45,013 bases of DNA, taken from positions 1-45,013 of the forward strand of contig JANRJA010000122.1 of the NCBI GenBank assembly GCA_033764315.1. Reading direction: 5' to 3'. Of this stretch, positions 3,836-44,224 are shown piece after piece. The number at the start of each line of letters is the position of its first letter. Position 1 is the first letter of the stretch. This stretch comes from Oculatellaceae cyanobacterium bins.114 (GTDB taxonomy: Bacteria > Cyanobacteriota > Cyanobacteriia > Elainellales > Elainellaceae). The position numbers were made by a program, and so were the translations under genes. A model generated the notes under the pieces. It saw only the letters and a program-made list of their open reading frames with translations, did no database searches and was not told where the DNA came from.

Positions 3836-3887
3836 TGTACAGGGAGAGGTGGCAATAGGGTCTGAATTTTGAACGGGAGGGTGACTG

Positions 3888-8373: not shown

Positions 8374-8463
8374 CCTCCAGGTCTATCCCTTTCTCACGGA
8401 AGAGTGGATTGGAATGGCTAAAAATTCTTCTCCTACGGGAGAAAGATTGGGGCACCTAAAATA

Positions 8464-8787: not shown

Positions 8788-8954
8788 GATTACCCTGTGA
8801 TCGCCGATCGCTTCTATTACTCGTGTGGTTGCAAGAGCACCATCTCTCTTGCATAGGAGCGATGGTAATCCTTACACCTTAATTCTAGAGCGATCTGGAG
8901 TTAGCCCAAAGTTCGGAAATTGCGACAATGAAAGGTGAAAAAGGCGATCGCTCC

Positions 8955-11455: not shown

Positions 11456-12226
11456 TTACTTCCACTGATGGTACAAGCGACCATTACGAATCTGAATCAC
11501 CGGATGATTTGACAGGCGAATCAACTGCTCATCGTGGGTTGTCACCACAACCGTAATCCCGATTGAGTTGAGCTTTTTGAGAATCTTGATCACTTGCCAG
11601 GAATTTTCAGAATCTAGATTGCCTGTGGGTTCGTCAGCTAACAGGATAGGTGGAGTGCCAACGATCGCCCGTGCAATGCTGACTCGTTGCTGTTCACCAC
11701 CCGACAACTCATCGGGGAAGCAGTTGGCTTTGTCTTGCAAGCCCACCATCTTGAGAGTTGGCAACAACCGCCGATGAATCTCCTTACGGGTAAAGCCCTG
11801 TGCCCATAAGACAAACGCCACGTTCTCAGAGACGGTGCGACGGGGGATGAGCTTGTAATCCTGAAACACAACTCCAATGCGGCGACGCAGCATAGACAGG
11901 TCGTTGCCTCGCAAGCGTGCCAGATTTTTGTCATGGACAAAGACTTCGCCTTTGGTGGGGCGTTCTTCTCCATACAACAGCTTTAACAGAGTTGACTTGC
12001 CTGACCCAGAGGGCCCCGTGACAAACAAGAAATCCCCTTTTCTGATTTGTAGATTGACATCCAACAACGCTCGACTGTTGTTGGGATAAATCTTGGTAAT
12101 TTGCTGGAGCTTGACAATGACTTGAGACGCTGGAGACGCAACAGGATTTTGCCCCGGTGTTGCAGCCGTCTGAGCCGTTGCGTAAGGGGAGGTAGCGATC
12201 GGAGGTCGTTCTAGAACCGGAGTCAT
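11456..12226 (-). CDS. ftsE: Cell division ATP-binding protein FtsE
   Basis: GPSGSGKS, RRRIGVVFQDYKL, LSGGEQQRVSIARA, LADEPTGNLD. Confidence 0.88.
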   Translation of the reverse strand: MTPVLERPPIATSPYATAQTAATPGQNPVASPASQVIVKLQQITKIYPNNSRALLDVNLQIRKGDFLFVTGPSGSGKSTLLKLLYGEERPTKGEVFVHDKNLARLRGNDLSMLRRRIGVVFQDYKLIPRRTVSENVAFVLWAQGFTRKEIHRRLLPTLKMVGLQDKANCFPDELSGGEQQRVSIARAIVGTPPILLADEPTGNLDSENSWQVIKILKKLNSIGITVVVTTHDEQLIRLSNHPVIQIRNGRLYHQWK

Positions 12227-12587
12227 GGAATTACTTCATCGAAGGGAAATTGAAAGCTTGAGTCAACACAATGCCCTGACGGAAATAAAACAAATATTAG
12301 AGCTCTTTCAAATTAGAGGGTTTGAATTGAGATGAATCGGGGCAAAGCACCCACTCACCTCACCTTGAAAGAAGACTATCGGAACGGTTTTATGTGGGCA
12401 TATTGTAATAGGTGTTGCTCCTTGAGTCACTACTTTTTGCGACTTTAAAGAAAAAATTTCTGCTTTGTCTCTTCAGTAGCCCACATTACACGAACAATCC
12501 GATCGATGATACAGGATCAACGTAACTTGTAACCTCTCTAACACAATTCCTTAATTAGTCTTAGTTTAAACCTCTCCAAAAAATAAA

Positions 12588-12826
12588 GGATGAAGGATAA
12601 AGGATAAAGGCTGAGGGATGAGGGATAAAGGCTGAGGGATGAGGGATAAAGGCTGAGGGATGAGGGATGAAGGATAAAGGCTGAGGGATAAAGGATAAAG
12701 GCTGAGGGATGAAGGATAAAGGCTGAGGGATAAAGGATAAAGGCTGAGGGATGAAGGATAAAAGTAAGAAAAACCCTCTATCCTTCTCATCCATCAGCCT
12801 TCAGCCTTCAGCCTTTTACCTTCAGC
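12588..12826. repeat. Heptamer tandem-repeat tract with a shorter inverted arm
   Basis: About 25 units of GGATAAA/GGCTGAG/GGATGAG/GGATGAA (12588-12762), then complementary TCAGCCT units near the sir stop. Confidence 0.9.
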
Positions 12827-12827
12827 T

Positions 12828-14735
12828 TTACTCTGCCGTCTCTAAGTAAGCTTCAAGGGCTTTTTCCACCAGTTCTGTCATGGGAACCCCCTTTGTGGTT
12901 GCCGTGGCTTTGAGGCGTTGATACAGGGCATCGTCTACTCCCAATCGATAGCGCGATCGATTTTTGTTGACGATTGGCTTGTAAGTCGCAGCATACTCTC
13001 GTAAGCCATCAAAGCCAACCCGATGGCAGAAGTCGCCAAAACTCTCGCCTGGGGTGCGGTGATTTTTGAAATAGAAGAACAGCGGTTCCAACGCGGCTTC
13101 TAATTCGCTGCCTTTAAGGTTATTGACATAGGGTTGAGCCAGACGAGTCTGATGAGGGTCAGCCCCTAGCCAGACCTGATAAGCATCGGGAGATTGACCG
13201 ACCAAACCCAACTCTGCCAAATAAGGACGGGCACATCCATTGGGGCAACCCGTCATGCGAATCACAAAGTGTTCGTCCTTTAAGCCCAGCTTGGTGAGCA
13301 ACGTACGGATGCGATCGAGAATGCCAGGTAATGCCCGCTCTGACTCTGTAATGGCTAAGCCACAGGTCGGCAGTGCTGGACACGCCATTGAATAGCGCAC
13401 CAGAGGATCAATCTCGTTCTCAAATTGAATACCACATCGCTTGAGAATGGCTTGAATCTCTGCCTGGTTAGCAGGGTCAATTTCATACAGAATAATGTTC
13501 TGATGAGGGGTGACTCGCATGGGCAGAGCAAACTGTTGCTCAATCTCGCGTAGAGCCGTTTTGAGTAACAGGGAACCGTTGTCATGAATCCGTCCGTTTT
13601 GCACTGAGAGGCCGACAAATAGCTTGCCATCTCCCTGTTCATGCCATCCTAAAAAGTCGTTGTATTTGAACTCTGGCAGAGGCTTCATTGGCTCAAACGA
13701 CTTACCAAAATAGTCTTCGACGGTGTGACGAAATCGCTCAACTCCCCAGTCGTTTAACAAATATTTCATGCGGGCATGACGTCGATCGGCGCGATCGCCA
13801 TAGTCTCGTTGAGTGGCTACGATCGCCTTAACCGCATTAAACACATCCGCTTTATCGACATAGCCAATCGGATCTGCCAATCGAACAAAGGTTTCTTCTT
13901 TGTTGTGAGTTCGTCCTAACCCACCCCCTGCAAAGATGTTGAAGCCTTGCAACAGACCATTGTCGTCAGTTATCACAACCAATGTGACATCCTGTGAAAA
14001 CAGATCAACCGAGTTGTCTCCCGGCACAGCGATCGCACACTTGAATTTGCGAGGCATATACTGAGTGCCATAGATAGGTTCCTCAGAATCATGCACGATT
14101 GTCCCATTCCCATTGCTGGCGAGAGCCGCCGCTACATCCGGGTGGGGTTCTGCGGTAATCGCTTTTTCCCCGTCTAGCCAAATTTCGTAGTATGCCCCGG
14201 TGTGAGGAGTCAGCAATTCTGCCAGGTGATGAGCATACTCCCGGGCATAAACATACTCTGGACGGTCTTTAAAGGGAGCAGGCGGAGCCATGACATTGCG
14301 ATTTAAATCGCCGCATGCCCCCAACGTGGAACCCATGTTGCGAATAATCGATCCTAAAACCAGCTTCAGATTCTTCTTGAGAATGCCGTGAATCTGGAAG
14401 CCCTGACGGGTAGTAGCACGCAGCGTATGATTGCCATACTCTTCAGAGAGTTGATCGAGCACAAGATAGAGTTGTGCGGGAATGTAACCTCCAGGGTTAC
14501 GAGTCCGCAGCATGAACTGATAATCTTTTTCTTGCCCTTTGATTCGGTTATCTCGGTTGTCCTGCTGATAGGATCCGTGAAACTTGAGGATTTGAATGCC
14601 ATCCTCACTAAAGTGCGTTGTATCTTGCAGAATCTCTGTGGCGATCGGCTCACGCAGAGCATTACTACGCTCTTTGATGCCTTCGACTTTGGAAGCTTTT
14701 TTATCTAGGGAAAGAGTTGCAGGAGTCTTGACCAT
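12828..14735 (-). CDS. sir: Ferredoxin-dependent sulfite reductase
   Basis: [26 protein letters not shown]...MTGCPNGC siroheme/4Fe-4S ligands. Confidence 0.95.
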
Positions 14736-14885
14736 TGGAACGATGAGCGGCTGAAAAGGGCAGATAAATAATTTACGATAATCCGGTAGGAATTAGGGAA
14801 ATACCATCATCCAATCCTATCATCCCATTCCAATAGCCATGTCAGGCGAGAAATCAGGAAAGATTTCGGATTGTGGAAGGGAGGG

Positions 14886-14942
14886 AGGCAGGTGGCGGGT
14901 GGCAGGTGGCAGGTGGCAGACAGAGACGCGATTAATCGCGTC
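14886..14942. repeat. GGCAGGT heptamer tract plus a GACGCGATTAATCGCGTC palindrome
   Basis: About 4-5 GGCAGGT units; palindrome at 14925-14942. Confidence 0.75.
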
Positions 14943-15097
14943 TATACTGAACCTATACTGAAGGGGGAAAAGAGGCAGGTGACAGAGGGCGGGTGGCAGT
15001 AAATCCCCCTATCGCGCTATCCTTACTCCCTACTCCTATTCCACGCTAATCTATAGCTAATTCACAGTCGAGATGCTATCGCGGCGATCATCCCTCC

Positions 15098-17695
15098 ATG
15101 TTGCAGTCCTATTTTGATTCCGACAACAACGGTCACAAATCATTTGAGTTACCTGGGGCAAAACCTCACTACAACCCCGATCGCCCTGGTCAGGTTGAAC
15201 ACATTGCTTTGGATTTAGTGCTAGATATTCCGCAACAGCGATATGACGGAACGTGCTCGATTCGCCTGAATCCAGTTCGTAGCGGCATCGATCGCCTGAT
15301 ATTGGATGCCGTTCAGCTAACGATTCACTCGGTAAAGGTCGTTGGGGTTGAGCAACGGTTTGAGTACGATGGTGAGCAGTTGCACATCTATCTCAAGGAA
15401 CCCAGCCAACAGCGAGAAAAACTTGAGTTGGCGATCGCTTATGCCGCCGATCGACCTCAACGCGGGCTTTACTTTATCACGCCCGATCAGCACTATCCCA
15501 ACAAGCCGATTCAAGTTTGGACACAGGGTGAAGATGAAGATTCTCGCTTTTGGTTTCCCTGTTTTGACTATCCGGGGCAACTGGCGACCTCTGAGATTCG
15601 AGTCAGGGTGCCCAAGCAATTTGTTGCCATCTCCAATGGAGAACTGGTGAGTGCTCAGGAAGAAGGCGACGACAAGATTTATCACTGGTCACAACAAGAA
15701 GTGCATCCCACTTATCTGATGACTTTGGCGGTTGGTGACTTTGCTGAATTGCGCGACGAATGGCAAGGCAAACCCGTTACGTATTATGTGGATAAAGGAC
15801 GAGAAGCCGATGCCCGCCGCAGCATGGGCAAAACGCCTCAAATGATTGAGTTTTTCAGCAAGGTCTATGGCTATCCCTATCCCTATCCCAAGTACGCCCA
15901 GGTGTGTGTCGATGACTTTATCTTTGGCGGCATGGAAAACACTTCCACAACCCTGCTAACCGATCGCTGCCTGCTAGATGAACGGGCCGCTTTAGATAAT
16001 CGGGGCACTGAAAGCTTGGTGGCACACGAACTGGCACACCAGTGGTTTGGTGATCTGGTGGTGATCAAGCACTGGTCTCATGCGTGGCTCAAAGAGGGCA
16101 TGGCTTCTTACTCTGAGGTGATGTGGACAGAGCACGAATATGGTGCCGATGAAGCCGCTTATTACCGTTTGGGTGAAGCGTCAAACTACATCTCAGAAGA
16201 CAGCTCCCGCTATCGTCGCCCGATCGTCACGCACATCTATCGAGAGGCGATCGAACTCTATGATCGGCACCTATATGAAAAAGGAGCCTGTGTCTATCAC
16301 ATGATTCGGGCGGAGTTAGGAGATGAATTGTTTGAGCGAGCGATTCATACCTTTGTCCAAGACAATGCCCACAAAACCGTTGAAACGGTTGATCTGTTAA
16401 GGGCGATCGACAAAGCCACAGGTCGCAACCTGCAATTTCTCTTTGATCAGTATGTGTTTCGAGGGGGACACCCTGATTACAAAGTGGCTTACTCTTGGGA
16501 TGGCGATAGCAACTTAGCCAAGCTCACGATTACCCAAACTCAGGTCAAAGATGGAGACACCAGCTTTAAAAGCGGATTGTTTGATCTCAAGATTCCTTTG
16601 GGGTTTGGCTATATTGGCGAATCAAGCCCTGCGACTGTGAAAACATTCACCGTTCGAGTGCATGAACGGGAGCAAACTTTCTACTTTCCATTAGCCGAGA
16701 AACCCCAATTCGTTAGTTTTGACGTCGGTAATCACATCCTCAAAACTGTGACATTGGAGTATCCCGTTGCTGAGCTAAAGGCGCAGTTACAGTCGGATCC
16801 CGATCCGTTATCGCGCATTTTGGCGGCAGAGGCACTCGCCAAAAAAGGCAATTTAGAAGCGGTGAAAGCTCTGACGATGGCTTTAAAGCACGATCAGTTC
16901 TGGGCAGTGCGGGCAGAGGTGGCTGACCAATTGGCATCGATCAAGCTTGATCAAGCATTCGCAGGATTAGTGGAAGGTTTAAGCGATCCAGAACCGAGAG
17001 TGCGTCGAGCCGTAGTAGACGCTCTGATGCAAATCAAAACAGAGCAGAGCTATGACGTGTTAAAGGCGATCGCCCAAAAGGGTGATCCGAGCTATTACGT
17101 TGAAGCGGCTGCGATTCGGGGAGTTGCAACCGTTTCGGCTACTTTGTTAAACGGAGATTCCAAAGAGGAAGCCGTGATTCAACTGCTCCAATCCGTTCTC
17201 CAAGAACGGGCAGGTTGGAATGAAACGGTGAGAAATGGGGCGATCGCTGGATTAAGTCGGCTCAAAACCTCTGAAGCAGCACTCAACTTGCTTTTGGAAT
17301 ACACCGCCATTGGTACTCCTCAACCGCTGCGCTTAGGTGCCATTCGAGCCTTAGGTGCGATCTCTACCGGGCAGACTCCGATCAACGTCGATCGCATCCT
17401 TACCCGCCTAACGGAATTGGCGGACGAGTCTTTCTTCTTAACACAAGTCTCAGTGGTAGTCGCTTTGGGACAAATGGAAACCACCAAAGCAATGGGTATT
17501 TTGCAGTCTCTCAGCGATCGCACCCCTGATGGTCGAGTTCGACGGATGGCAGAAGAAGCCATCCAAAAAGTGCTAAAAAATGCTGGACAGCCTGAAGCTG
17601 TCAAAAAACTGCAACAAGAACTCGACCAACTCAAGCGGGATAACCAGGACTTGAAGAGTCGTTTGGAAACATTAGAGGCAAAAGCCAAAGGCTAA
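15098..17695 (+). CDS. pepN: M1-family aminopeptidase with C-terminal HEAT repeats and coiled coil
   Basis: GGMEN, HELAHQW...LKEG zinc motif, YEKGA; HEAT-like repeats. Confidence 0.9.
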   Translation: MLQSYFDSDNNGHKSFELPGAKPHYNPDRPGQVEHIALDLVLDIPQQRYDGTCSIRLNPVRSGIDRLILDAVQLTIHSVKVVGVEQRFEYDGEQLHIYLKEPSQQREKLELAIAYAADRPQRGLYFITPDQHYPNKPIQVWTQGEDEDSRFWFPCFDYPGQLATSEIRVRVPKQFVAISNGELVSAQEEGDDKIYHWSQQEVHPTYLMTLAVGDFAELRDEWQGKPVTYYVDKGREADARRSMGKTPQMIEFFSKVYGYPYPYPKYAQVCVDDFIFGGMENTSTTLLTDRCLLDERAALDNRGTESLVAHELAHQWFGDLVVIKHWSHAWLKEGMASYSEVMWTEHEYGADEAAYYRLGEASNYISEDSSRYRRPIVTHIYREAIELYDRHLYEKGACVYHMIRAELGDELFERAIHTFVQDNAHKTVETVDLLRAIDKATGRNLQFLFDQYVFRGGHPDYKVAYSWDGDSNLAKLTITQTQVKDGDTSFKSGLFDLKIPLGFGYIGESSPATVKTFTVRVHEREQTFYFPLAEKPQFVSFDVGNHILKTVTLEYPVAELKAQLQSDPDPLSRILAAEALAKKGNLEAVKALTMALKHDQFWAVRAEVADQLASIKLDQAFAGLVEGLSDPEPRVRRAVVDALMQIKTEQSYDVLKAIAQKGDPSYYVEAAAIRGVATVSATLLNGDSKEEAVIQLLQSVLQERAGWNETVRNGAIAGLSRLKTSEAALNLLLEYTAIGTPQPLRLGAIRALGAISTGQTPINVDRILTRLTELADESFFLTQVSVVVALGQMETTKAMGILQSLSDRTPDGRVRRMAEEAIQKVLKNAGQPEAVKKLQQELDQLKRDNQDLKSRLETLEAKAKG

Positions 17696-24756: not shown

Positions 24757-25692
24757 ATGATATTCATTAATCCTAAAACTGATTTTGCCTTCAAAAAAAT
24801 CTTCGGTTCTGAGCAAAGCCGCGACATATTGATCAGTTTTTTGAATGGCATTCTGTATGCAGGGCAATCTACAATTCAAGATCTAGAAATCCTCAATCCC
24901 TATCAAGCCCCTCGAATTCGAGGTGTGAAGGATACTTATTTGGATGTCAAAGCCCAACTGAGCACGGGTGAAGCCGTGATCATCGAAATGCAGGTATTGA
25001 ATGTGGAGGGGTTTGAGAAGCGAATTCTCTACAATGCGGCTAAAGCCTACTCCATTCAGTTGAGTGCAGGACAGAGTTACCCTTTACTTAATCCAGTGAT
25101 TGCGCTAACAATTACTGATTTTGAGATGTTTCCTGAAATTGATGCGGTCATTTCTCGCTTTGTGCTTAAGGAAAAAGATTATTTAATTGATTATCTAATC
25201 CACGATTTGGAGTTAGTCTTTGTCGAATTACCCAAGTTTCAAAAGCCTTTAGAAGCCCTGACAAGCTTGACAGACAAGTGGATTTATTTTCTTCAAAATG
25301 CTCGTGACTTGAGCGTTGTACCTGACATTATGGGAACAGTCTCTGCAATTCAGCAGGCTTTTGAGATTGCCAATCAGGCAAATTTGACCCGAGAAGAACT
25401 GGAAGAACTGGAGCATCAACTGATTTTTATTCAAGATCAACGGGGAGCCATCACTAAAGCGACCAAGCAGGGACTGCAACAGGGACTCCAAGAAGGATTG
25501 CAACAGGGACTCCAGGAAGGACTGCAACAGGGATTGCAACAGGGATTGCAACAGGGACGAAAAGAGGCACAGCTAGAAACTGCTCGGCGATCGCTCGCTT
25601 TCTTAGACGATGCGGCTATTAGCCAAATTACGGGGCTATCAGTAGAAGAAATTAGTGATTTAAGGAGATCTGATTTCACGGTTAGCGGTTAG
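24757..25692 (+). CDS. Rpn-family PD-(D/E)XK nuclease / putative transposase
   Basis: NPKTDFAFKKIFG, LDVKA...IIEMQ, C-terminal GLQQ repeats, ISQITGLS HTH. Confidence 0.9.
   Translation: MIFINPKTDFAFKKIFGSEQSRDILISFLNGILYAGQSTIQDLEILNPYQAPRIRGVKDTYLDVKAQLSTGEAVIIEMQVLNVEGFEKRILYNAAKAYSIQLSAGQSYPLLNPVIALTITDFEMFPEIDAVISRFVLKEKDYLIDYLIHDLELVFVELPKFQKPLEALTSLTDKWIYFLQNARDLSVVPDIMGTVSAIQQAFEIANQANLTREELEELEHQLIFIQDQRGAITKATKQGLQQGLQEGLQQGLQEGLQQGLQQGLQQGRKEAQLETARRSLAFLDDAAISQITGLSVEEISDLRRSDFTVSG
25468..25560 (+). repeat. 12-bp coding tandem repeat (GLQ[Q/E]) x ~7
   Basis: CAGGGACTGCAA-like units. Confidence 0.9.
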
Positions 25693-32882: not shown

Positions 32883-35800
32883 CTACTGGGTAGCTGGGTG
32901 TGATGCAAGGACTTTTTTGAGGTATTGCCCCGTGTAGGATTTGGCTACTTTTGCCACGGTTTCGGGAGTGCCTTGAGCGATGATTTCACCGCCGCGATCG
33001 CCCCCTTCTGGCCCTAAGTCAATGACCCAATCAGAGCAGCGGATCACATCCAGGTTGTGTTCGATCACTAAAATCGAGTTACCCATATCTGCCAGTCGTT
33101 GCAATACATCCAGCAACTTATGGACATCGTAGAAAGACAAGCCTGTGGTAGGTTCATCGATCAAATAGAGAGTTTTACCAGTGGCGCGTCGTGACAGCTC
33201 GGTTGCCAGTTTGAGTCTTTGTGCCTCTCCTCCTGAGAGGGTGTGGGCGGTTTGTCCCAGGCGAATATAGCCGAGTCCCACGTCCACCATTGTTTGCAAA
33301 CGGGCATGAGCTTTGGGGATGTTTTCAAAGAACACCATTGCCTCTTCAGCCGTCATGTTCAACACGTCTGAGATAGACTTGCCTTTATATTTCACCTGCA
33401 AGGTTTCTCGGTTATACCGTGCCCCTTTGCAGACTTCACATTGCACGTAAACATCGGGCAAAAAGTTCATCTCAATGACGTTTACGCCCTGACCCCCGCA
33501 GGCTTCACAACGTCCGCCTTTGACATTGAAGGAAAACTGCCCCGGTTTATAGCCGCGTGCTTTGGCTTCAATGGTTTCAGCAAACAGATCACGAATTACG
33601 TCGAATACACCAGTATAGGTTGCCGGATTAGATCGGGGAGTGCGACCGATGGGCGATTGGTCAATCACGATCGCCTTGTCCAGGGCATTCAATCCCCCCA
33701 TTTCTTCCATTTCTCTGGGATAGGGGATCTTGTGCCCAAAGTGGTGTTGCAGTGCTGGATAGAGCAGTTCGTTGATTAGTGTTGATTTGCCCGATCCAGA
33801 CACTCCTGTAACGCAGACCAGCTTGCCGAGAGGAATATCAACGCTGATGTTTTGCAAGTTGTTGCGGTGGGCTTTGCGAATGCGAAGCATGCAGCCGTTG
33901 CCCTTGCGCCGTTCTGCTGGAGTGTGAATCACCCGTCGGTTAGACAAATACGCTCCGGTTAAGGACTCCTCGGACTCTAAAATGTCCTGGAACGTTCCCT
34001 GGGCAACGACCCGTCCTCCATGTACACCTGCTCCGGGGCCAATATCCACCAGGTAATCTGCCGCCCGAATTGTGTCTTCATCGTGTTCTACCACAATCAG
34101 TGTGTTGCCCAGATCACGCAAGCGAGTTAGCGTTCGCAACAGGCGATCGTTATCGCGTTGATGTAAGCCGATACTGGGTTCGTCGAGCACGTAGAGCACT
34201 CCCGTCAAACCAGAGCCAATTTGAGTTGCCAATCGGATGCGTTGAGCTTCTCCACCCGACAAAGTCATAGCCGTGCGATCGAGGGTGAGATAGTCTAAGC
34301 CCACATCCAACAAAAACTGGAGACGGGCTTTAATTTCCTTGAGCACCAACTCCCCAATTTGGGCTTGCCGGGGAGTCAGTTCCAGGCTATTGACTCGATG
34401 GAGGCAATCGCGGATTGAAACACTGGTTAACTCTTTGATCCGGTGTTGCCCGACCCGAACCCGGAGAGCAGCAGGCTTGAGGCGATCGCCCCCACATTCT
34501 TCACAGGCCTGATCCACCAGATATTGTTCCAACTTTTGTTTATAGAGATCAGAGGTGGCTTCTCGATATTGTCGATCGAGCATCGGCAACACACCCTCAT
34601 AGCGTCGCTGATAGCCTTTGCTATCGCGATAGCGCGAATCAGACTCGATATAAATCTTTTCGTCAGACCCGTGCAAAACCACATGCTGTTGATCGGGGGT
34701 GAGTTTGTTCCAGGGGGACTGGATCTCAAACCCAAACGCTTGACCGACGCTGTAAAGCAGGGAGAAGTAGTAGGTGTTGTCTTTTTCAGACCAGGGGGCG
34801 ATCGCCGCATAGACAGGTAAGGTGGGGTCGGGCACCACCAACTCGGCAGAAAATGTCCGTAACGTTCCTAACCCATGACATTGAGGACAGGCTCCGTAGG
34901 GCGAGTTAAAAGAAAACAACCGGGGAGAGAGTTCTTCCATGACTGCCCCGTGTTCAGGACAGGCAAAGTTTTCAGAGAAGACCAACTCTAACGAAGGTTT
35001 GTCTGTGTTCTCGTCAGAGTCTTGACCATATCGCCCTGCGGGTTCTGCTGCCATCGAAGGCAATACGGCCAACTGCATGTCATCGGGCTTTGTGGGAAAG
35101 GCGATGACGTTATTGGTTTCGGGTAGGGTGACATCAATGATGGCAATCCCTTCCGACCGCTTTAAGCAGGTGGAGAGTGAGTCCACTAGACGTTCTTGAA
35201 TGCCCTCTTTTTTCACCAGGCGATCGACCACAATTTCGATGTTGTGGAATTGGTTCTTATCCAACTCAATGGAATCGCTCAGTTCGCGCACTTCGCCATC
35301 CACCCGCACCCGCACAAATCCTTCGGACGCAAGACTGGAAAGCAGTTTTTTGTGAGTTCCCTTTTTGCCCCGCACGACGGGAGCCAGAATTTGAAATCGC
35401 GCGCGATCGGGTAAATCTGAAATTCGATCGACCATCTCATCAATGGTTTGGGGCACAATGGAGCGATCGCAATGGGGACAATGGGGTTCCCCGGCGCGTC
35501 CATAGAGCAAGCGCAGGTAGTCGTAGATCTCGGTGACGGTTCCCACCGTAGAGCGAGGGTTGTGGGAGGTCGATTTTTGGTCAATGGAGATAGCAGGACT
35601 CAGCCCCTCAATCGCATCCACATCGGGCTTATCGACCTGCCCTAAGAACTGCCGCGCATAGGCACTGAGCGATTCGACATAGCGTCGCTGACCCTCAGCA
35701 AAAATGGTGTCAAATGCCAGCGACGACTTGCCTGAACCCGACACCCCGGTGAAGACTACTAGGCGATCGCGCGGTAACTCTAAGTCAATATCTTTGAGGT

Positions 35801-35999
35801 TATGCTGCCGTGCCCCTCGAATCCGAATTAAGTTCTGCGGTGGTTTTGAGCCGGGTGAGACGCTGTTAGACGCTGGAGCAGCAAGAGCGGCGTGAGGCGA
35901 TTCACCATTGCCATTCAGTGGTTCGGGGTTGCTATCAACATCAAGCTCAGTCACTACTGAGGGCTTAGAACTCTTTCCAGAGTTGGCACGCTTGGACAT
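32883..35999 (-). CDS. uvrA: Excinuclease ABC subunit A
   Basis: Two GVSGSGKS ATPase domains, zinc fingers, LSGGEAQR twice; ATG 35999 preferred over GTG 36050. Confidence 0.97.
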
Positions 36000-36122
36000 A
36001 AGGGGCGGTTGCGGCAGGAAACGGTTCTTAACAATTCTATCGTTATCCACTCTATGCGAGTATCAAAGCAATCAAGAATCATCAAATTTGCAATACTCCA
36101 TCGTAGCGCGATCGCCTCATTT

Positions 36123-36136: not shown

Positions 36137-36187
36137 TTGTGATTACAGCATGGAAACCGGAGCATCGCCCTTTCCGTACAGACGCGA

Positions 36188-36610
36188 TTAATCGCGTCTC
36201 TGCCTGTCTTCTACCTTCTGCTTTCTTAATTCAATCGCCACTTCCCGAATTCCTGCCGTAATTTCCAGAAATGCCTCATCTTGATTAGCCCAGCTTGTCA
36301 CAGCCTCTTTATTCTTGGGCAACACCTCAAGCTGACTAAACGGCGCACCTTGCCAATCGACTGGACGCAACAAAATGGGAATCACACGCGCCTCGCCTGC
36401 CTGATGGCGTTCCATTGCCCGTTTGATTTTTACGTCATAGCAGGTGTTGTCGGCAATGGAATCAGGGCTAATCAGCAATAGAATAATGTCGGTAGCGTTG
36501 AGGCGATCGCTGATCACCTTTGCCGTTTCGTCTCCGGGGAGAGTTTAGCGACTATCCCAACTGGTGATCACTCCTTCTCGTCCTAGCAGGTTAAGGTGCT
36601 TGGCTAACTC
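36188..36610 (-). pseudogene. Orphan, 5'-truncated and inactivated TIR-domain copy
   Basis: Close homolog of 37371-37760; in-frame TAA at 36545-36547; CYDVK in place of CYDIE. Confidence 0.85.
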
Positions 36611-36688
36611 GTGAGTTGAATCCTCCAAACTCTTTAGCTTTCGGAGTGAGAGATAATAGCTCTACCCTTGACTTCGTTATTCGCAGTA

Positions 36689-36931
36689 ATGCCAACGCTT
36701 TTAAGACAAGATGGATTTGAGATTCGGATGTACTTTAATGATCATGACCCACCTCATGTTCATGTATTCAAGGCAGGTGGGCAGGCAAAGGTTGGGCTTG
36801 GTAATCTGGAAGTGTCTCCCAGCCTCTTGTTAGTTCAAGGAATGAGCGACAAGGATGCGAAAAAATCGATCGCCATCGTAATGCAGCACCAAACAGAACT
36901 CTTAGACAAATGGGAAGAATTTTATGGTTGA
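36689..36931 (+). CDS. DUF4160-family protein (putative toxin)
   Basis: MPT...MYFNDHDPPHVHV...LLDKWEEF. Confidence 0.85.
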   Translation: MPTLLRQDGFEIRMYFNDHDPPHVHVFKAGGQAKVGLGNLEVSPSLLLVQGMSDKDAKKSIAIVMQHQTELLDKWEEFYG

Positions 36932-37292
36932 ACCCAGCTTAGAAGATTTAGCCTTTCAACAACAGTTTGAAGAGGCACAATCGGCGGCGACTCAGGCAAA
37001 TCTCACAGAACCCAGAGCCGTTTCTGCCTATTATGATTCAACCGTAGGATTGGTCATCATTCGATTGCAAAGCGGTGCAATTTTTAGTTTTCCACCCGAA
37101 ATTGCTCAAGGATTGGCAGGGGCAGAGCCAGACGTGTTAGCCCAAGTAGAAGTGACTCCAATGGGAGATGGATTGCACTGGGAAACTCTGGATGCAGATT
37201 TCAGCGTAGCGGGTTTGCTGGCAGGAGTGTTTGGCACCAAACGGTGGATGGCGGATCTGCAACAACGGTGGTTACAACAGCAGGCATCTTAG
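36924..37292 (+). CDS. DUF2442-family protein (putative antitoxin)
   Basis: GDGLHWETLDADFSVAGLLAGVFG; overlaps the upstream ORF by 8 nt. Confidence 0.85.
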   Translation: MVEPSLEDLAFQQQFEEAQSAATQANLTEPRAVSAYYDSTVGLVIIRLQSGAIFSFPPEIAQGLAGAEPDVLAQVEVTPMGDGLHWETLDADFSVAGLLAGVFGTKRWMADLQQRWLQQQAS

Positions 37293-37370
37293 GGCGATCG
37301 CCCCTTTACACTATCCTTTCACCCTTCCGTACAGACGCAATCAATTGCGTTTCTGCCTACTGCCTGCCCT

Positions 37371-40300
37371 CTATCTTCTGAATGCAATTGCCACTTCCCT
37401 AATTCCCTTCGCGATCTCTTCAAATGCCTCATCTTGATTCGCCCAGCTTGTCACGGGCTGTTTATTTTTGGGCAACACCTCAAGCTGACTAAAGGGTGCA
37501 TCTTGCCAATCGACCGGACGCAGCAGGATGGGAATCACTCGCGCCTCCCCTGCCTGATGGCGTTCCATTGCCCGTTTGATTTCGATGTCATAGCAGGTGC
37601 TGTCGGCAATAGAATCAGGGCTGATCAGCAACAGAATGATGTCGGTAGTGTTGAGGTGATCGCTGATCACCTTTGCCGTTTCGTCACCGGGGAGAATTTG
37701 GCGACTATCCCAACTCGTGATTACACCTTCTCGTTTCAAAATGCTGAGATGTTTCTCCAACTTATCTCGTAGCTCTTCGTCCTCACTAGCGTAGGAGAAG
37801 TAAAGGGCGATTACCCCGAAGGGGGAACTGCTTCGCACCGCTCGTCCTTGGGGAATCAAACCGTGAGCAATTTCGTAGTTGTAGTAACCGCAGCGTTTTT
37901 GGATGGCAATAATTGCTTTAAGTGCTTCCTCTCCAATTTCACAAAAAGTTAGAGGTAATAAATTAGGTAAGTATTGAGAGGTTATATTACCTGCAATCTG
38001 TTCAATTGCGTATGCAGCACAAAGACGTACCTCGTAATTTGAATGTTGAATTGCCTGAAGTAGACCTGGAATTGCCTCTCTATAACCAAACTTTCCAAGA
38101 AGTAGAGAAACACACAAATTCATTTTGAAATCCAAACTTTTGAAATCTAAGCTGTCGCGGAGAAGTATAATTTGCTCTTCAGATAAAATATTCCAGAGTG
38201 TAAAGGTGATACTCCAATCAGGATTAAATTCTGAACATTTAAGCTTTTGAATTAATATAGGAACTGCTGTTTGGTTTAAAGTTTCTCTAAATTCTTTCTT
38301 GGCACTCCAGTCCCGAAGAATAGATATAGCTCCTTGATAAACTGAATGATCAGAATGAAAAACAGCTCTTAATAATGCTGGAATAGCCTCCTCTGATTCA
38401 ACTCTATAAAAGCCATTAATTGCTTTCCTGCAAATCTCGACGCTTGAATCTTGAAGACCCAATAATAGTCCTGGAATTACTTCTTGAGAACCAATAATGT
38501 TTAATGCATAAACTGCACTTAAACGGATGCCTTCGTTTCTATTCTCCCTGATTAGCTGAGTTAATTTTGGAATTGCTGACTTAAGCCTTAGTCGTCCCAA
38601 AACTTCAGCTACACAATTACGATCTGGAGATTTTGGGTCTTCCATAACTTCTAATAGAAGTGGAACCACCTCTTCAGTGCCTATTATTGCCAAAGCATGA
38701 ATAGCTCCAAGTCTAATGTATTGATCTGGAGCTTTCAAATTTTCAGAGAGTAAAAATAATCTATTTTCAGTGCTGAGTAAGTTCAAGCTTCTAACATAAC
38801 TTGAGTAAGCATCTGGCTCATTTTTGCCTAAAAACTCAAGAAAATCTATACTTACTCTCTCATAAGGATTAAGATGCTTCTGATCAGTATCATCTCCTAC
38901 AGAATCAGTTTCGGAAGATACCCAATTTTGCGAAAACTTAGAAGTTTCTGCTAGATGATCAAGACAGCCTAGTAGCAACAATTGAACATTAGCTTTTTCT
39001 TTTGTTCCTAATGTTGAATCATTAATGATTATTCGTTTTGAATTGTTGTTGTAGATTCTTTTGAGGAATGGAATAGCCTCTTGTGATTTTGTTTCTCCCA
39101 AAAGCTCTATTCTTAGCCAGTCTGATATTTGAGAATCGTGTAAATATGATATGTTCATCAACTCGATGGCTCTTCTCTGAATGGCTGAATGAACATCCCC
39201 TGCAAGTCTTGCTCCTAACATCAAATCTACATCCAGTGCTAATCTCACTATGTGCAATGCTTGATTTTCTTGCTTTAGTAGAGACAGCATTAGGGCGATC
39301 GCCTCTGTCCATTTCAAATAGTTGAGGTAATCCCGCTTCAGTTGCTCATCGCTCAAGTTCGGTAAGTGTTGCAGCAAATACTCAGCCGCGTAATATTCCT
39401 GAAATAGCTGATGGTGAAACTCAATTTCTCCGGGTTTGGCTGCGTCTTGTAGAAGGTGATGGTTGCATAAATCCTTCAACCACTCTTTTGCTCTCGTGGG
39501 GGCATCTACCACTCCTCGCTGGTGTAACCAATTCTCTAAAAGGCTTTCTGCTCGATGTTTGGAAATAGTCAGCCATAGGTCAGTCGGCTTCTGCCCATCT
39601 GCCTGAATCATAGAAAAGGCTAGATGCTGTAGAACCTCTGATTTGAACTCCCAAAAGTTCTTGGATACAGGCACGTAATCTTTTTTGAGGCGTTCATAGT
39701 TGCGATCGAACTGCCGAAACAACTCCCCTTTATTCTGCGGAATCTCTCTCGTTTGCTTGAACACATCACACAGCATCTTTAAGAACAGCGGCGTTTCTGC
39801 AATCTCTCGCAAGCGATCGCGCAACTGCGTTAAGAGTTGTTCTCCATGCTCTGGCAAATACTTCTTCACAAAATCCCGCATCTGTAGCTCTGACAGCGGT
39901 TTCATCTCCAGCCGCTTGCCAATGCCCAAATCACCCCCGACGGCTAACTCTCGCGTTGTAAAAATCATCGGCACGGTTAGATTATCCTCTCGGAACTGCG
40001 CCAACCTACGCCGCAAGTCATCATTGGGAATTTCATTCACCCCATCTAGCAGCAAAATGAGCTGATCAGCTAATAACCAATCTTCAATCTGCTCCGATGT
40101 GACCCGTTGCCTTGCCCGTCGAAATTCAGCCTGAATCAGTTCAGGAACAGGGCGATCGCCCTTCAACTGCACCAACACTGGAACCTGACCTGCCTCTGCC
40201 AAAGCAACTGCTAACTGTTTCAGTGCTGTTGTCTTGCCTGAACCGGGTCGTCCCGCCAACAACACATGCTCGCGCTGTTCCCCCAGTGCATACCTTCGCA

Positions 40301-40748
40301 ATCCGGTTAGAACTAGGAATTGCTCAACCTGCCGTTCCTGTGGCTGTCTGTCCTGCGGCTGATGAGTGTCCTGCGGCTCTACCGATCGAGCCTCCAGCGG
40401 CAATAGCGCATCTGTTGGTGTATACAGAGTGTTTTGCTCAGAATAAAGACGGGCGATCGCAGTCAAATAAGGCTCAAAATCGGGCTGAGCTAAATTGGTA
40501 GAGTTTAGTGGTTGAAAATTTTGCTGAATTGCCTCTACGATCGCCCTTACTGCATCCTCATTCATTTCGACATAGGTGCGATCGCCAATGTAAATCTCTC
40601 GCCCCTCACCGATCTGAATGTTGTACTTTCCCCATTGCACAACTTGAGGATCTCGGTTGTTTAAGACATCTCGCAAGCGTTGCAAATCAGCGGCAGTTGC
40701 CGTACCGTTCTCTAGGCGTACCAACCATTCATCTAGCGGCTGAGTCAT
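37371..40748 (-). CDS. NLR-like protein: EAD-like N-terminus, NACHT NTPase, HEAT repeats, C-terminal TIR
   Basis: VVQWGKYNIQIGEGREIYIGD, GRPGSGKT, LLLDGVNE, EFHHQLFQEYYAA, HEAT repeats, FSYASED...CYDIEIKRA...VIPIL. Confidence 0.88.
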   Translation of the reverse strand: MTQPLDEWLVRLENGTATAADLQRLRDVLNNRDPQVVQWGKYNIQIGEGREIYIGDRTYVEMNEDAVRAIVEAIQQNFQPLNSTNLAQPDFEPYLTAIARLYSEQNTLYTPTDALLPLEARSVEPQDTHQPQDRQPQERQVEQFLVLTGLRRYALGEQREHVLLAGRPGSGKTTALKQLAVALAEAGQVPVLVQLKGDRPVPELIQAEFRRARQRVTSEQIEDWLLADQLILLLDGVNEIPNDDLRRRLAQFREDNLTVPMIFTTRELAVGGDLGIGKRLEMKPLSELQMRDFVKKYLPEHGEQLLTQLRDRLREIAETPLFLKMLCDVFKQTREIPQNKGELFRQFDRNYERLKKDYVPVSKNFWEFKSEVLQHLAFSMIQADGQKPTDLWLTISKHRAESLLENWLHQRGVVDAPTRAKEWLKDLCNHHLLQDAAKPGEIEFHHQLFQEYYAAEYLLQHLPNLSDEQLKRDYLNYLKWTEAIALMLSLLKQENQALHIVRLALDVDLMLGARLAGDVHSAIQRRAIELMNISYLHDSQISDWLRIELLGETKSQEAIPFLKRIYNNNSKRIIINDSTLGTKEKANVQLLLLGCLDHLAETSKFSQNWVSSETDSVGDDTDQKHLNPYERVSIDFLEFLGKNEPDAYSSYVRSLNLLSTENRLFLLSENLKAPDQYIRLGAIHALAIIGTEEVVPLLLEVMEDPKSPDRNCVAEVLGRLRLKSAIPKLTQLIRENRNEGIRLSAVYALNIIGSQEVIPGLLLGLQDSSVEICRKAINGFYRVESEEAIPALLRAVFHSDHSVYQGAISILRDWSAKKEFRETLNQTAVPILIQKLKCSEFNPDWSITFTLWNILSEEQIILLRDSLDFKSLDFKMNLCVSLLLGKFGYREAIPGLLQAIQHSNYEVRLCAAYAIEQIAGNITSQYLPNLLPLTFCEIGEEALKAIIAIQKRCGYYNYEIAHGLIPQGRAVRSSSPFGVIALYFSYASEDEELRDKLEKHLSILKREGVITSWDSRQILPGDETAKVISDHLNTTDIILLLISPDSIADSTCYDIEIKRAMERHQAGEARVIPILLRPVDWQDAPFSQLEVLPKNKQPVTSWANQDEAFEEIAKGIREVAIAFRR

Positions 40749-41065: not shown

Positions 41066-43528
41066 ATGATGAGTGCCCAAGAACCCAGCGAATCGCTACT
41101 CTATAACGAGACAGAAACGGCAATGCCAACGCCAATCACTGCCGCTGTTAAACCCGATCGCACGCAGCCAGAAGACAAACAAGCCACACAACAAAGAGCC
41201 GTTGAACCAGAACCCTATAATCACATGCTGCGATCGCGCGATCGCCTCTTAGAAACCGTTGCCAAAGCGACCAATATTCTGCTGACCCTGGAGAACTTTG
41301 ATGAAGCGGTCAATACGGCTTTAAACATCATTATGGAAGGCGCAGGCTGCGATCGCATTGGGGTTTTAGAGAATGGCTTTGATGAGGAATCAAAGCTGCC
41401 TTCGCACTATACGATCATCTACGAAGTTGCAAAACCTGGCATCATTAGCCAGATGGCTTGTTTAGAAGCAGGACGTATCAGTAATGTAGGTAGAGAAGCC
41501 TTCATGGAACAACATTATGTCCAGGGAGAAGGCTTTGGCGGATTTTTGGAGGATTGGGATGAACCTGTTCGGGGCGTGTTAGCATCCGTTCAAGTCAAGG
41601 CGTGTTATGCCGTTCCGATTCGGGTGAACGGTCAGTGGTGGGGTCTGTTATGCATTGATTACTGTCGAGAAGCGGTTCGCATCAGTCCGGCAGAAAGTGC
41701 TGTTTTGAAAATGGTTGCTGATTGTATTGGCAGTGCCATCCACCGCGATCGCACCCATCAAGAACGCGCACAGTTTGCTCAACAGCGTGCTGCCGAACTG
41801 AACGAGTACAATCAAAGGCTGCTGAGGCGAGATCGGTTACTAGAGGTTACTGCCAGAGCGACCAATATGCTGCTGACTCTGGATAACATTGACGTAGCGA
41901 TGGAATCTGCGCTTACAGTTCTGCTTGAGGGAACAGGGTGCGATCGCATTGAAATCCTTGAAAATGTCTACGAATCCTCATCCCCGATGCCGATTCGTTA
42001 CCTCAATACGATTCAGAAATGCCTGGAGCCACAATTTGAAACTAGCCCCACTGATGTTGAGTCTGTCCAAGCTGCCGAACTCAGTGATGCATTCAAGAAG
42101 TACTTCCTGGAGATGGATGGCTTTGGTGGTTCTGTAGAGGAATGGGATGAGCCGCTAAGAAGTTGGTTAGCGACTCTGAAAATTCAGTCTACCTACGCAG
42201 TTCCGATTCGGGTGAATGGTCACTGGTGGGGTGTCTTGTGTTTTGATTATTGCCGTGCCCCCATTCAGTTCAACCCTGCTGAAGTTGCGGTGTTGAGAAC
42301 AATCGCCGATTGCATTGGCAGTGCTATTCAACGCGATCGCGCTCAGAAAGCCTTGCTCGAAGCCGAACAAAATCGAGTCGCTGAATTGGCAAGAGCGAAC
42401 ACTGCCATGCGTCATAGCATTGATTGGTTAGCCCATGAGCCAGATATGAACGCATTTCTGGGGCATTTACTAGAAGAATTGGCAACTCAAGTGAACGCCC
42501 AGGATGCCATGATCTTTCTCTACAATGCACGAGAAGGCACATTGCAGCCCTTTGTTGGTGTCATTGACGATGAGATTACCTTTTCCCCACCCTTTACTCG
42601 CAAAATTTCAGCCCATGAATGGCCGGGTTGGGAGGTGCTGTTGCGATCGCCAAACCCCATACAGTTCGACCTGGATACCGATGCCCACTTGTTTATGCCG
42701 GAATATCTGGAGTATCATCGCAGACGCAATAATCAGGGAGTCGTTTGTACCCTACTGCAACAGGGAGATGAACCACTGGGGTTTATTGGGTTTGGCTGTG
42801 TCCGCAAAACCCTGTCGGAGAATGAACTGGAACTGGTGCAGTCCCTAGCACAACAGGCAACACTGGCGATTCAATTAACTCAACTGGCAGAAGAAGCAAA
42901 ACAGACAGCATTGCTGCAAGAGCGTGCCCGCATGGCGCGAGAAATTCACGATACTCTGGCGCAAGCCTTTGGTGGCATTTCGATGCAGTTACAAGCCGCT
43001 ACCTATTTTGCGGCTACTAAAGCTGAAAAAGCACAAACCCATTTACTGGCAGCACAAGCCTTAGCAAAAGATGGCTTAGCCGAAGCTCGACGATCGGTTT
43101 GGACTCTATATTTAGAAACTACGGAATACGAAAACCCAGACCAGGCGATCGCTAAGTTCATTGAGCAAGCTGCACTCAGTCAATCAGCCCAAATTACATT
43201 GGCGATCGACGGTACTCCTTACCATTTGCATCCCGATGTAGGACTAAATTTACTCCGCATTGCCCAAGAATCGATTACCAATGCCTTGCGCCATGCCCAC
43301 GCCCAAACGATCCAGGTTCGCCTGAGTTATAGTGCCCAACTCTTGAAATTGGCTATTTGGGACGATGGCTCTGGGTTTGAGCCGCAATCCTCTGCTCCTG
43401 GGTTTGGGTTATTGGGAATGCAACACCGGGCAGCCCGAATTGGAGCCACCTGGCACTTGGTCAGCCAAGTGGGGCAAGGCACCAGCATTACCGTCACGAT
43501 CGCCAATCCAACGATTCTCTCAACTTGA
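41066..43528 (+). CDS. Soluble triple-GAF HisKA_3 sensor histidine kinase
   Basis: Two duplicated GAF-like units and a third GAF; ERARMAREIHDTLAQ, QESITNALRHA, DDGSGF, GFGLLGM; no TM segments seen. Confidence 0.88.
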   Translation: MMSAQEPSESLLYNETETAMPTPITAAVKPDRTQPEDKQATQQRAVEPEPYNHMLRSRDRLLETVAKATNILLTLENFDEAVNTALNIIMEGAGCDRIGVLENGFDEESKLPSHYTIIYEVAKPGIISQMACLEAGRISNVGREAFMEQHYVQGEGFGGFLEDWDEPVRGVLASVQVKACYAVPIRVNGQWWGLLCIDYCREAVRISPAESAVLKMVADCIGSAIHRDRTHQERAQFAQQRAAELNEYNQRLLRRDRLLEVTARATNMLLTLDNIDVAMESALTVLLEGTGCDRIEILENVYESSSPMPIRYLNTIQKCLEPQFETSPTDVESVQAAELSDAFKKYFLEMDGFGGSVEEWDEPLRSWLATLKIQSTYAVPIRVNGHWWGVLCFDYCRAPIQFNPAEVAVLRTIADCIGSAIQRDRAQKALLEAEQNRVAELARANTAMRHSIDWLAHEPDMNAFLGHLLEELATQVNAQDAMIFLYNAREGTLQPFVGVIDDEITFSPPFTRKISAHEWPGWEVLLRSPNPIQFDLDTDAHLFMPEYLEYHRRRNNQGVVCTLLQQGDEPLGFIGFGCVRKTLSENELELVQSLAQQATLAIQLTQLAEEAKQTALLQERARMAREIHDTLAQAFGGISMQLQAATYFAATKAEKAQTHLLAAQALAKDGLAEARRSVWTLYLETTEYENPDQAIAKFIEQAALSQSAQITLAIDGTPYHLHPDVGLNLLRIAQESITNALRHAHAQTIQVRLSYSAQLLKLAIWDDGSGFEPQSSAPGFGLLGMQHRAARIGATWHLVSQVGQGTSITVTIANPTILST

Positions 43529-43588
43529 CCCCTCCAAACCACCGCCCTATTTCACCCAACTTATTTCACCAACTATTTTGAGCCAACT

Positions 43589-44224
43589 ATGCTGACCCAA
43601 TCCAGCAAAACCATTCGTATCTTAATTGCCGACGACCATCCGATTGTGCGTCAAGGCTTAGTGGCGATTCTCAATGATCAACCCGATATGACTGTGGTTG
43701 TCGAAGTTAGTAATGGGCAACAGGCGATCGAGCAGTTTCGCATTCACCAACCGGATGTTGCCATTCTCGATTTGCGGATGCCTGATGTTGGCGGTGTTGA
43801 AGCCATTCATGCCATTCGTGCTGAGTTTCCTGATGCGGCTATCATCATGTTCTCGATTTATGAAACAGATGAGGATATCTATCAAGGGCTACGCGCGGGA
43901 GCCAAAGCCTATCTGCTCAAAGACACGCCTTGTCTGGAAATGTTGGAGGTGATTCGAGCTGTCAGCGAAGGGCAACGCTACGTTCCGGCAGAAATTGGCA
44001 CAAAATTAGCCGCCCGCATGGATCGCCCTGCTTTAAGCGATCGCGAATATGAAGTTCTGGCACTGATGGCAAAAGGTAAAAATAACAAGGCGATCGCCAC
44101 GGAACTCACCATTAGCGAAAATACAGTCAAATTTCATGTGGCTAATCTGCTGATTAAACTGGGAGCCAGCGATCGCACCCACGCTGTTGTTAATGCGCTT
44201 CAGCAAGGCGTTATTAAGCTGTAA
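43589..44224 (+). CDS. NarL/LuxR-family response regulator
   Basis: IADDHPIVR, ILDLRMP, LSDREYEVL...TVKFHV. Confidence 0.93.
   Translation: MLTQSSKTIRILIADDHPIVRQGLVAILNDQPDMTVVVEVSNGQQAIEQFRIHQPDVAILDLRMPDVGGVEAIHAIRAEFPDAAIIMFSIYETDEDIYQGLRAGAKAYLLKDTPCLEMLEVIRAVSEGQRYVPAEIGTKLAARMDRPALSDREYEVLALMAKGKNNKAIATELTISENTVKFHVANLLIKLGASDRTHAVVNALQQGVIKL

Follow-up and report, generated by a model that had tools for sequence, protein, structure and literature searches.

A 45,013-nucleotide (nt) stretch of Oculatellaceae cyanobacterium bins.114 (positions 1 to 45,013 of contig JANRJA010000122.1, assembly GCA_033764315.1; hereafter the window) raises the question of whether an immune receptor gene, a small toxin-antitoxin (TA) pair and a dead gene fragment that lie side by side form one defence module, or are parts with separate histories. 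The open reading frame (ORF) map revealed four features between uvrA and a GAF histidine kinase gene: an ORF of 1125 amino acids (aa), two small ORFs and a 109-aa ORF (Table 1). A preliminary description, made from the sequence, had taken them as one candidate defence module inserted upstream of uvrA, and the ORF map and Pfam did place a NACHT-HEAT-TIR gene, a TA pair and a second TIR copy where that description had put them. The joint reading that we consider likely is of a working NLR-like STAND receptor, an independent TA cassette and the relic of an allele replacement. In its favour are the domains and motifs of the receptor and the uneven conservation along its length, a cassette that moves, a relic that has decayed, and a layout that is met again at other loci.

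Table 1. Features of the locus and of its flanks, by position in the window.
Feature	Position (nt)	Strand	Support or remark
uvrA, conserved flank	32883-36050	minus	Pfam UvrA domains
3' flank of relic, with perfect 20-nt dispersed palindrome	36169-36199	unassigned	blastn
Dead 3' fragment of a second TIR gene	about 36188-36640	minus	alignment; TIR_2 genome match with one TAA inside
109-aa ORF within relic, partial TIR_2 match	36188-36517	minus	ORF map, Pfam
TA cassette, extent by similarity to another genome	36641-37303	plus	nt similarity to G020:C220
DUF4160 gene, putative DhiT-type toxin; ATG at 36689, in-frame TTG upstream at 36668	36689-36931	plus	Pfam, NCBIfam
DUF2442 gene, putative DhiA-type antitoxin	36924-37292	plus	Pfam; 8-nt overlap with toxin gene
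3' flank of intact gene, diverged palindrome copy, part of repeated segment	37322-37370	minus	repeat search, blastn, alignment
STAND NTPase gene, intact, 1125 aa, order EAD10, NACHT, HEAT repeats, TIR	37371-40748	minus	ORF, translation, Pfam, 1299 homologs
C-terminal TIR, residues 984-1111	37416-37799	minus	TIR_2 51 bits, cut-off 28
38-nt dispersed repeat, in frame in HEAT-TIR linker, +9 residues	37804-37842	minus	10 genome matches including itself
HEAT-repeat region, presumed sensor, about residues 500-965	37854-39251	minus	HEAT_2 in 4 stretches (E 4e-33), HEAT_PBS
NACHT core, residues 162-299	39852-40265	minus	Pfam NACHT 28.8 bits, cut-off 26.7
EAD10 adaptor, residues 5-74, motif GKYNIQIG...IGD	40527-40736	minus	Pfam E 1.3e-19
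GAF histidine kinase and LuxR-type regulator, other flank of locus	41066-44224

All of the domains proposed for the large protein were recovered by Pfam (EAD10, NACHT, HEAT_2 and TIR_2), giving the tripartite layout of EAD10, NACHT and HEAT repeats, with the TIR domain placed behind the repeats. The EAD10 match scored 70.5 bits against a cut-off of 24.1 (75 bits in the genome search) and is fused to the core NTPase. The NACHT model passed by a narrow margin, and nSTAND5 (29.9 bits, cut-off 34) and NB-ARC (21.7 bits, cut-off 23.5) stayed below their cut-offs. The Walker A motif, G166-R-P-G-S-G-K172-T-T174 (40227-40253), fits GxxxxGK[ST] and is invariant in 19 TIR-ending sequences, while the Walker B region, D235-G-V-N238-E239, matches the pattern D[GAS]hDE at four of five positions, with N238 invariant in the same number of sequences. 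The Pfam TIR model was also above its cut-off (28.1 vs. 21.3 bits), and both C1052 and E1056 of this domain were invariant across the 19 TIR-ending homologs, as was E1056 in a 6-sequence alignment. Glu1056 (codon at 37581-37583) lies at the start of helix alphaC and aligns with the Glu of the Cat1 TIR domain in the motif C-x-D-E-L; sequence matches in the PDB were to Cat1 and to a TIR-STING fusion. We take this conserved Glu to be the catalytic residue. As adaptor, NACHT NTPase, repeat sensor and TIR domain are all in place, with Walker A, four of the five Walker B positions and the TIR Glu retained, the NLR-like nature suggested for this gene was upheld at the level of sequence.

The gene call of the record itself (P0005; 931 aa, 37371-40164) starts at codon 195 and is devoid of both EAD10 and the P-loop. 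The longer, 1125-aa reading was favoured because the EAD10 match is in frame and is conserved in the homologs P0010 (66% over 77 aa) and P0069. Annotation of such genes therefore calls for some caution, as the call in the record strips the protein of its adaptor and its P-loop. The linker between the HEAT repeats and the TIR domain contains a 9-residue insertion, missing from all five aligned homologs (5/5), which corresponds to the 38-nt dispersed repeat of Table 1; this repeat has a small GC hairpin and is a small repeat element tolerated within a coding region.

Of 8000 candidates scored in a word-index search, 1299 proteins reached E ≤ 0.001. The matches listed comprised 119 non-self homologs, and 80 genome loci were returned with the family alignment, all 80 of them from cyanobacteria. 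A TIR domain was present in 18 of the 119 listed homologs, always at the C-terminus behind HEAT repeats, and EAD10 in two (2/119); many of the listed homologs have a trypsin-like peptidase domain (PF13365 or PF00089), and one of these, P0009, has a C-terminal TIR domain as well. This variation in TIR, EAD10 and peptidase domains among family members therefore implies that the terminal modules are interchangeable. The C-terminal TIR had been described beforehand as less usual. It is indeed the rarer arrangement among the bacterial NACHT proteins described by Kibby et al. (bioRxiv 10.1101/2022.07.19.500537), but within the present family it recurs in the 18 homologs just mentioned.

Conservation along the protein was mosaic. 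Identity to the best relatives reached 90-93% in the NACHT core and 76-78% in the TIR domain, vs. 48.5% at most, and near 32% for most relatives, in the HEAT region; GC content was 0.36-0.40 across positions 38000-39499, as compared to 0.48-0.52 on either side. Because of this mosaic identity and the dip in GC over the HEAT repeats, the sensor seems to evolve, or to be exchanged, much faster than the modules that flank it, and such a pattern would be expected if the sensor diversifies. In the same-genus genome (G001), the best homolog had 65% identity over residues 77-568 only and no C-terminal TIR domain. Because this homolog is partial, and because the site adjacent to uvrA differs in G001, the receptor is regarded as an accessory gene. 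Taken alone it is, judging by its domains, one more member of the known bacterial NACHT and EAD conflict systems, and unsurprising as such. To our knowledge, no member of the HEAT-TIR branch has been tested.

The protein has HEAT repeats of the phycobilisome-lyase type (HEAT_PBS, with NblB at 55.6 bits and CpcE at 43 bits), and two proteins of this genome join the same TIR subfamily to GUN4. Both observations would suit a receptor that serves filament cell death, self/non-self control or the monitoring of photosynthesis instead of phage defence, and Kaur et al. (PMC7159879) tie such systems to multicellular bacteria. However, the NblB and CpcE scores are far below the respective cut-offs of 300 and 330, likeness at the level of repeats is no evidence of a common ligand, and those bacterial NACHT proteins that Kibby et al. 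describe as tested protect against phage (bioRxiv 10.1101/2022.07.19.500537). We therefore consider a role outside defence to be quite unlikely, and retain the reading of the protein as an NLR-like immune receptor.

Among the known systems, bacterial NACHT proteins defend against phage, a minority of them with the effector at the far C-terminus behind repeats, as described by Kibby et al. (bioRxiv 10.1101/2022.07.19.500537). The window protein resembles the members described there in its central NACHT NTPase, its HEAT-type repeat sensor and its TIR or EAD terminal modules, and both are abundant and paralogous in cyanobacteria; it differs in combining an N-terminal EAD10 with a C-terminal TIR enzyme domain, and in its Walker B sequence, DGVNE. 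Avs proteins, as presented in PMC13581612, likewise combine a sensor and a death effector with a STAND NTPase, and are activated by the binding of a phage protein, a logic that the window protein may share by analogy. In contrast, the Avs proteins presented there have N-terminal effectors and other sensors, and the window protein gave only weak NCBIfam matches; those to models with anti-phage names were far below threshold (e.g., EruA at 31.5 bits, cut-off 1000).

The TIR domain itself matched the PADLOC model of ThsB1 (E 3e-52, model positions 3-142 of 319), its best match in the defence library being of the ThsB type. It could thus be asked whether the TIR makes a signal, namely a ThsB-like, NAD-derived messenger by which a separate effector, encoded at another site in the genome, is activated; the 43 TIR_2 matches in the assembly, found in many architectures, would suit such a signalling network. 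Yet ThsB is free-standing and works with ThsA, whereas the window TIR forms the C-terminal end of a STAND receptor, and there was no ThsA-like partner nearby, the neighbours being uvrA, the TA pair and the GAF histidine kinase gene. A Thoeris-like pairing is unsupported because SIR2_2 gave no match either nearby or across the assembly (90.7% complete); other receivers, SLOG and Macro domains among them, were not searched for. A messenger-making TIR seems improbable to us, and we prefer a TIR that acts as the effector of its own receptor.

Seven paralogs of the TIR subfamily were found in the genome (loci L206-L212), with 42-57% identity to the window copy. In these the TIR is N-terminal or stands alone: one TIR-AAA_35, two TIR-GUN4, one TIR-STAND-TPR, two with an unassigned remainder and one free TIR. 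The window protein is the sole one in its genome with this TIR subfamily at the C-terminus.

EADs have been proposed to be homotypic adaptors, and EAD10 is listed among those that "primarily recruit other effectors" (Kaur et al., PMC7159879). The window gene shares with the EAD-coupled systems described in that work an EAD10 fused to the core NTPase and a filamentous cyanobacterial host; there, the cognate EAD effector is often next door, whereas none is adjacent in the window. The genome has three EAD10 matches, all with the motif GKYN-x-x-G...IGD. On contig C202, a small TIR-EAD10 protein (about 8200-8950; L003) lies 6.6 kb from an EAD10-NACHT gene (about 12000-15620; L002); the two have one and the same variant of the EAD10 motif, and the arrangement looks like an effector-core pair of the type described by Kaur et al.

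The two small genes are on the plus strand and the receptor gene on the minus strand, so that the TA pair is convergent with the receptor, as had been described. Both genes matched Pfam above the cut-offs (DUF4160 at 59 bits, DUF2442 at 51 bits), and the toxin gene comes first, with the 8-nt overlap with the antitoxin gene and the order found in dhiTA. For DhiTA of Dickeya dadantii, which has the toxin gene first and overlapping genes, toxicity and neutralisation have been shown (PMC8198452), and PMC12065111 reports a DUF2442 protein following most DUF4160 proteins. The likeness to the DhiTA described in PMC8198452 lies in the domain pair, the toxin-first order and the overlap. The window pair differs in being distant, since NCBIfam toxin_DhiT scored 37.7 bits and did not reach the equivalog cut-off of 100, which denotes a shared Pfam family and no equivalog; the toxicity of the window pair is predicted.

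A copy of the cassette was found in a genome of another family (G020:C220), with 81% nt identity over 567 nt from window position 36641 and 74% matches that extend to 37303. Next to the copy at that locus (L015, 6445-8665) are genes encoding TPR and CHAT (caspase-like) proteins, a further pair of the conflict-system kind. DUF4160 was present in 16 of 41 related genomes, with two copies in the genome of bins.114, and a DUF4160 search of the same-genus genome G001 gave no match. A plasmid origin of the cassette was looked for in PLSDB (blastn, distant), without a match.

The preliminary description had proposed that the pair acts as a dedicated stabiliser or co-effector of the receptor, to be checked by the co-occurrence of NACHT-HEAT-TIR genes with DUF4160/DUF2442 across cyanobacteria. 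This co-occurrence was found at only one of the 80 homologous NACHT-HEAT loci (L092), where DUF2442 alone passes Pfam, and narrow hidden Markov models built from two near-identical TA seeds also found L092 only. The broad DUF4160 model recovers 30 of 30 seed loci, and the DUF2442 model is weaker (15/30). Because of the 1/80 co-occurrence, and of a mobile copy beside unrelated genes, a dedicated partnership of TA pair and receptor is unsupported; with two copies in the genome and the 81% copy next to the TPR and CHAT genes elsewhere, the proposal of a dedicated stabiliser or co-effector lacks support. The best-supported reading is that the DUF4160/DUF2442 pair is a separate, horizontally moving, predicted type II TA cassette, which would stabilise the locus at most, and that it is tied to the receptor by position, in a manner general to the family.

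There is, however, a weaker association: TA cassettes from many families are overrepresented immediately behind NACHT-HEAT family genes. This was analysed with our own choice of TA-type Pfam families, Uma2 and XisH being left uncounted. Ten non-redundant loci were retained in which a NACHT match precedes a C-terminal TIR of this kind and the downstream sequence extends for some 1.3 kb or more (window, L016, L021, L025, L026, L074, L128, L130, L131, and L180). Left out were L126 and L127 (no NACHT match upstream), L045 (fragmentary TIR matches), L132 (too little downstream sequence) and L129 (a duplicate of L130). Clear TA genes were found within about 1.5 kb downstream at six of these ten TIR-ending loci, or seven if the doubtful L016 is included, and their families varied: DhiTA in the window; ParE with an upstream small ORF and an MNT-type nucleotidyltransferase at L021; UPF0175 with a ParE-like gene, DUF2281 and a RelE-like gene at L025; DUF2281 with PIN, and HepT, at L128; DUF2283, UPF0175 with DUF3368, a nucleotidyltransferase and DUF433 at L130; and UPF0175 with DUF3368 at L131. 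No downstream TA genes were found at L026, L074, and L180.

As a control, the first 46 of 56 eligible TIR-less NACHT-HEAT loci with at least 1.5 kb of downstream sequence were used. TA families occurred within 1.5 kb downstream at 15 of these 46 loci, compared to 4 of 42 on the upstream side (Fisher p = 0.010; p = 0.018 for 14/46), the upstream control consisting of 42 of the same 46 loci, as four had too little upstream sequence. In four of these 46 control loci the NACHT-HEAT gene is followed immediately by a separate HEAT-repeat ORF (L034:6650-7771, L050:11540-12151, L057:10076-11353, and L071:12234-12914); these could be split genes, or sensor relics analogous to the TIR relics described below.

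Such enrichment downstream, together with the 6/10 of the TIR-ending set, could also mean that the TA pair belongs functionally to the immune module, either through a toxin that is released when the receptor fires or through a pair that protects the gene from loss. The same TA types recur across genera (e.g., UPF0175/DUF3368 at L020, L046, L058, L063, L130, and L131), and Kaur et al. describe a TA-derived toxin domain as co-effector in other conflict systems (PMC7159879). This explanation is hard to reconcile with a DUF4160/DUF2442 pair at 1/80 homologous loci, with TA families that vary by locus, with the opposite strand of the window pair and its 81% nt copy beside unrelated genes, and with the 31 of 46 TIR-less loci that gave no downstream TA match. 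We hold it to be unlikely, and keep to a cassette that is independent of the receptor it adjoins.

The fourth feature of the locus is the second TIR copy. Its product aligns with receptor residues 1027-1125, with 85 of 99 aa identical, and blastn aligned 36169-36581 with 37322-37734 at 86% nt identity over 413 nt. Weaker similarity extends to about 36640, and the similarity of the cassette to its relative in G020 starts at 36641. The copy is without strand betaA and all upstream sequence, has a TAA stop at 36545-36547 where the intact copy has CAA, and carries AAA (Lys) at 36428-36430 in place of the GAA of Glu1056. It is therefore dead, as the preliminary description had recognised, being truncated at its 5' end, interrupted by a stop and changed from Glu to Lys at the conserved position. 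Both TIR copies have kept their stop codon and the dispersed palindrome behind it.

That description had also called the fragment a duplicate, but we do not read it as a copy that arose on the spot and then decayed. Over 119 codons the relic and the intact copy differ by a synonymous distance (dS) of 0.44, with a ratio of nonsynonymous to synonymous change (dN/dS) of 0.14, and among the sequences in hand they are mutually closest (86.7% aa identity, next best 81.7%). Because dN/dS is 0.14 at a dS of 0.44, most of the divergence arose with both copies under purifying selection; from this, and from their mutual closeness, the relic is taken to be the tail left by recent truncation of a sister allele or paralog that used to function. 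If the 3' end of the gene and its spacer had been duplicated locally in tandem, and the copy had been junk from birth, this would explain why the copies are direct repeats 1153 nt apart, mutually nearest relatives, with the same dispersed palindrome behind both stop codons. But the low dN/dS at this dS is unexpected for a fragment that was dead from birth, what lies between the copies is a cassette whose 81% nt relative belongs to another family, and in three other genomes the relics are parted from the intact gene by different TA cassettes. Tandem duplication thus appears very unlikely, and the relic is better read as the tail of a formerly functional TIR gene.

The palindrome is perfect over 20 nt at 36180-36199, with a diverged copy near 37335-37354 and further copies at 3813-3840 and 14921-14943. 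It is dispersed in the genome (160 high-scoring segment pairs in blastn-short, both strands counted) and present in G001, G012, G018, and G029. It is also the only hairpin at the junctions; attC sites, which would mark an integron cassette, are longer than this. A diversity-generating retroelement, with the two TIR copies as template and variable repeat, was rejected, as the differences between the TIR copies include T/A, A/G, and G/C when compared by eye and are not confined to adenine, and Pfam gave no reverse transcriptase match among the ORFs of the module.

Relics of this kind are not confined to the window. Within the ten-locus set, TIR relics that are truncated at the 5' end and complete at the 3' end lie downstream and on the same strand at four loci (window, L021, L025, and L130). 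The relic at L021 is 84% identical to its neighbour over 266 nt and that at L025 87% over 99 nt, while at L130 two relics are stacked, with 89% identity over 168 nt and over 176 nt; one contains a frameshift and the other a stop. Among 80 metagenome loci, nine have more than one TIR, and only L129 and L130 show the relic pattern; the others are split matches within one gene (L132, L133), an N-terminal fragment upstream (L136), two full tandem TIRs (L138) or full TIRs on opposite strands (L154, L178, L179). No earlier description of TA cassettes or TIR relics behind NACHT genes was found in the open-access literature searched.

The uvrA region had 82.6% nt identity to the same-genus genome G001 over 3241 nt, and synteny with G001 stops at position 36135, beyond which a P-type ATPase gene comes next in G001; the gap between the relic flank and this conserved stretch upstream of uvrA is 34 nt. 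The opposite flank is not syntenic with G001, and a clean insertion can therefore not be outlined. The earlier claim that the genes were inserted upstream of uvrA is borne out only partly. Scans for promoters and terminators gave no excess over shuffled sequence (10 vs. 8.4 and 3 vs. 4.7, respectively). Elsewhere in the window, an ORF at 24757-25692, among response-regulator genes, matches PDDEXK_2, a PD-(D/E)XK nuclease family transposase (E 3e-49).

How the three parts came together may be compared with small TA islets, which are proposed in PMC13617665 to spread by homologous recombination at their flanks, without mobile-element genes. The likeness to the islets described there lies in tiny, TA-only insertions devoid of integrase or transposase, and the recombination model fits the present locus because neither was found here. 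The differences are that homology in the window would be provided by the coding sequence of an immune gene (TIR, perhaps NACHT) and not by core genes, and that the event in the window left a partial copy of its target. An incoming allele, together with its downstream cassette, would have recombined in, and the TIR tail of the resident gene would have been displaced while still attached to the uvrA flank.

For the receptor we infer ligand sensing, NADase activity and cell death from its domains, as we do the recombination route from the layout. The hypervariable HEAT solenoid would bind a molecule of invader origin or one that is a sign of infection; binding would release the NTP-dependent oligomerisation of the NACHT module; oligomerisation would gather the C-terminal TIR domains, leading to cleavage of nicotinamide adenine dinucleotide (NAD+); and this cleavage would arrest the infected cell of the filament or cause its death. 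At the N-terminus, EAD10 could add EAD10-tagged partners through the binding of like with like.

Several observations weigh against this combination of working receptor, independent cassette and relic. The Walker B sequence is DGVNE and not the NACHT signature D[GAS]hDE given by Kibby et al. (bioRxiv 10.1101/2022.07.19.500537), the 9-residue repeat insertion just before the TIR domain might impair it, and an AlphaFold2 model of the TIR region (6-sequence alignment) shows strand-helix alternation at low confidence, with a mean predicted local distance difference test score of 58. No EAD10-tagged effector was found beside the window gene, and the only such effector in the assembly (91% complete) adjoins a different EAD10-NACHT gene, that on C202. 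Any recruitment through EAD10 would therefore have to take place in trans. At other loci the cassettes run in the same direction as the receptor gene, but the window pair converges on it. With two sub-threshold matches dropped, downstream TA genes fall to 13/46 (p = 0.032), TIR-ending and TIR-less loci do not differ significantly (6/10 vs. 15/46, p = 0.15), and the compared loci are related to each other, so that these counts and p-values, and those given above, overstate independence.

The recurrence of the layout allows a more specific scheme, which we put forward as tentative as a whole. In this renewal by homology arms, the NACHT and TIR segments that flank the hypervariable HEAT region would serve as arms, and incoming alleles would bring a TA cassette along. 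Each replacement would push the resident TIR tail downstream, leading to stacked relics such as those at L130. A cassette lying between two TIR repeats may loop out and re-enter related TIR genes by recombination, and as an addiction module it may fix the new immune allele in the population.

For annotation, it follows that a neighbouring TA pair should not be counted as part of a defence system without a test of co-occurrence. For the biology of the family, the pile-up of TA genes, the interleaved TIR relics and the diverged sensor suggest a way, open to testing, in which bacterial NLR-like genes may swap their sensors, and the same pattern points to selfish TA modules that travel with immune alleles.

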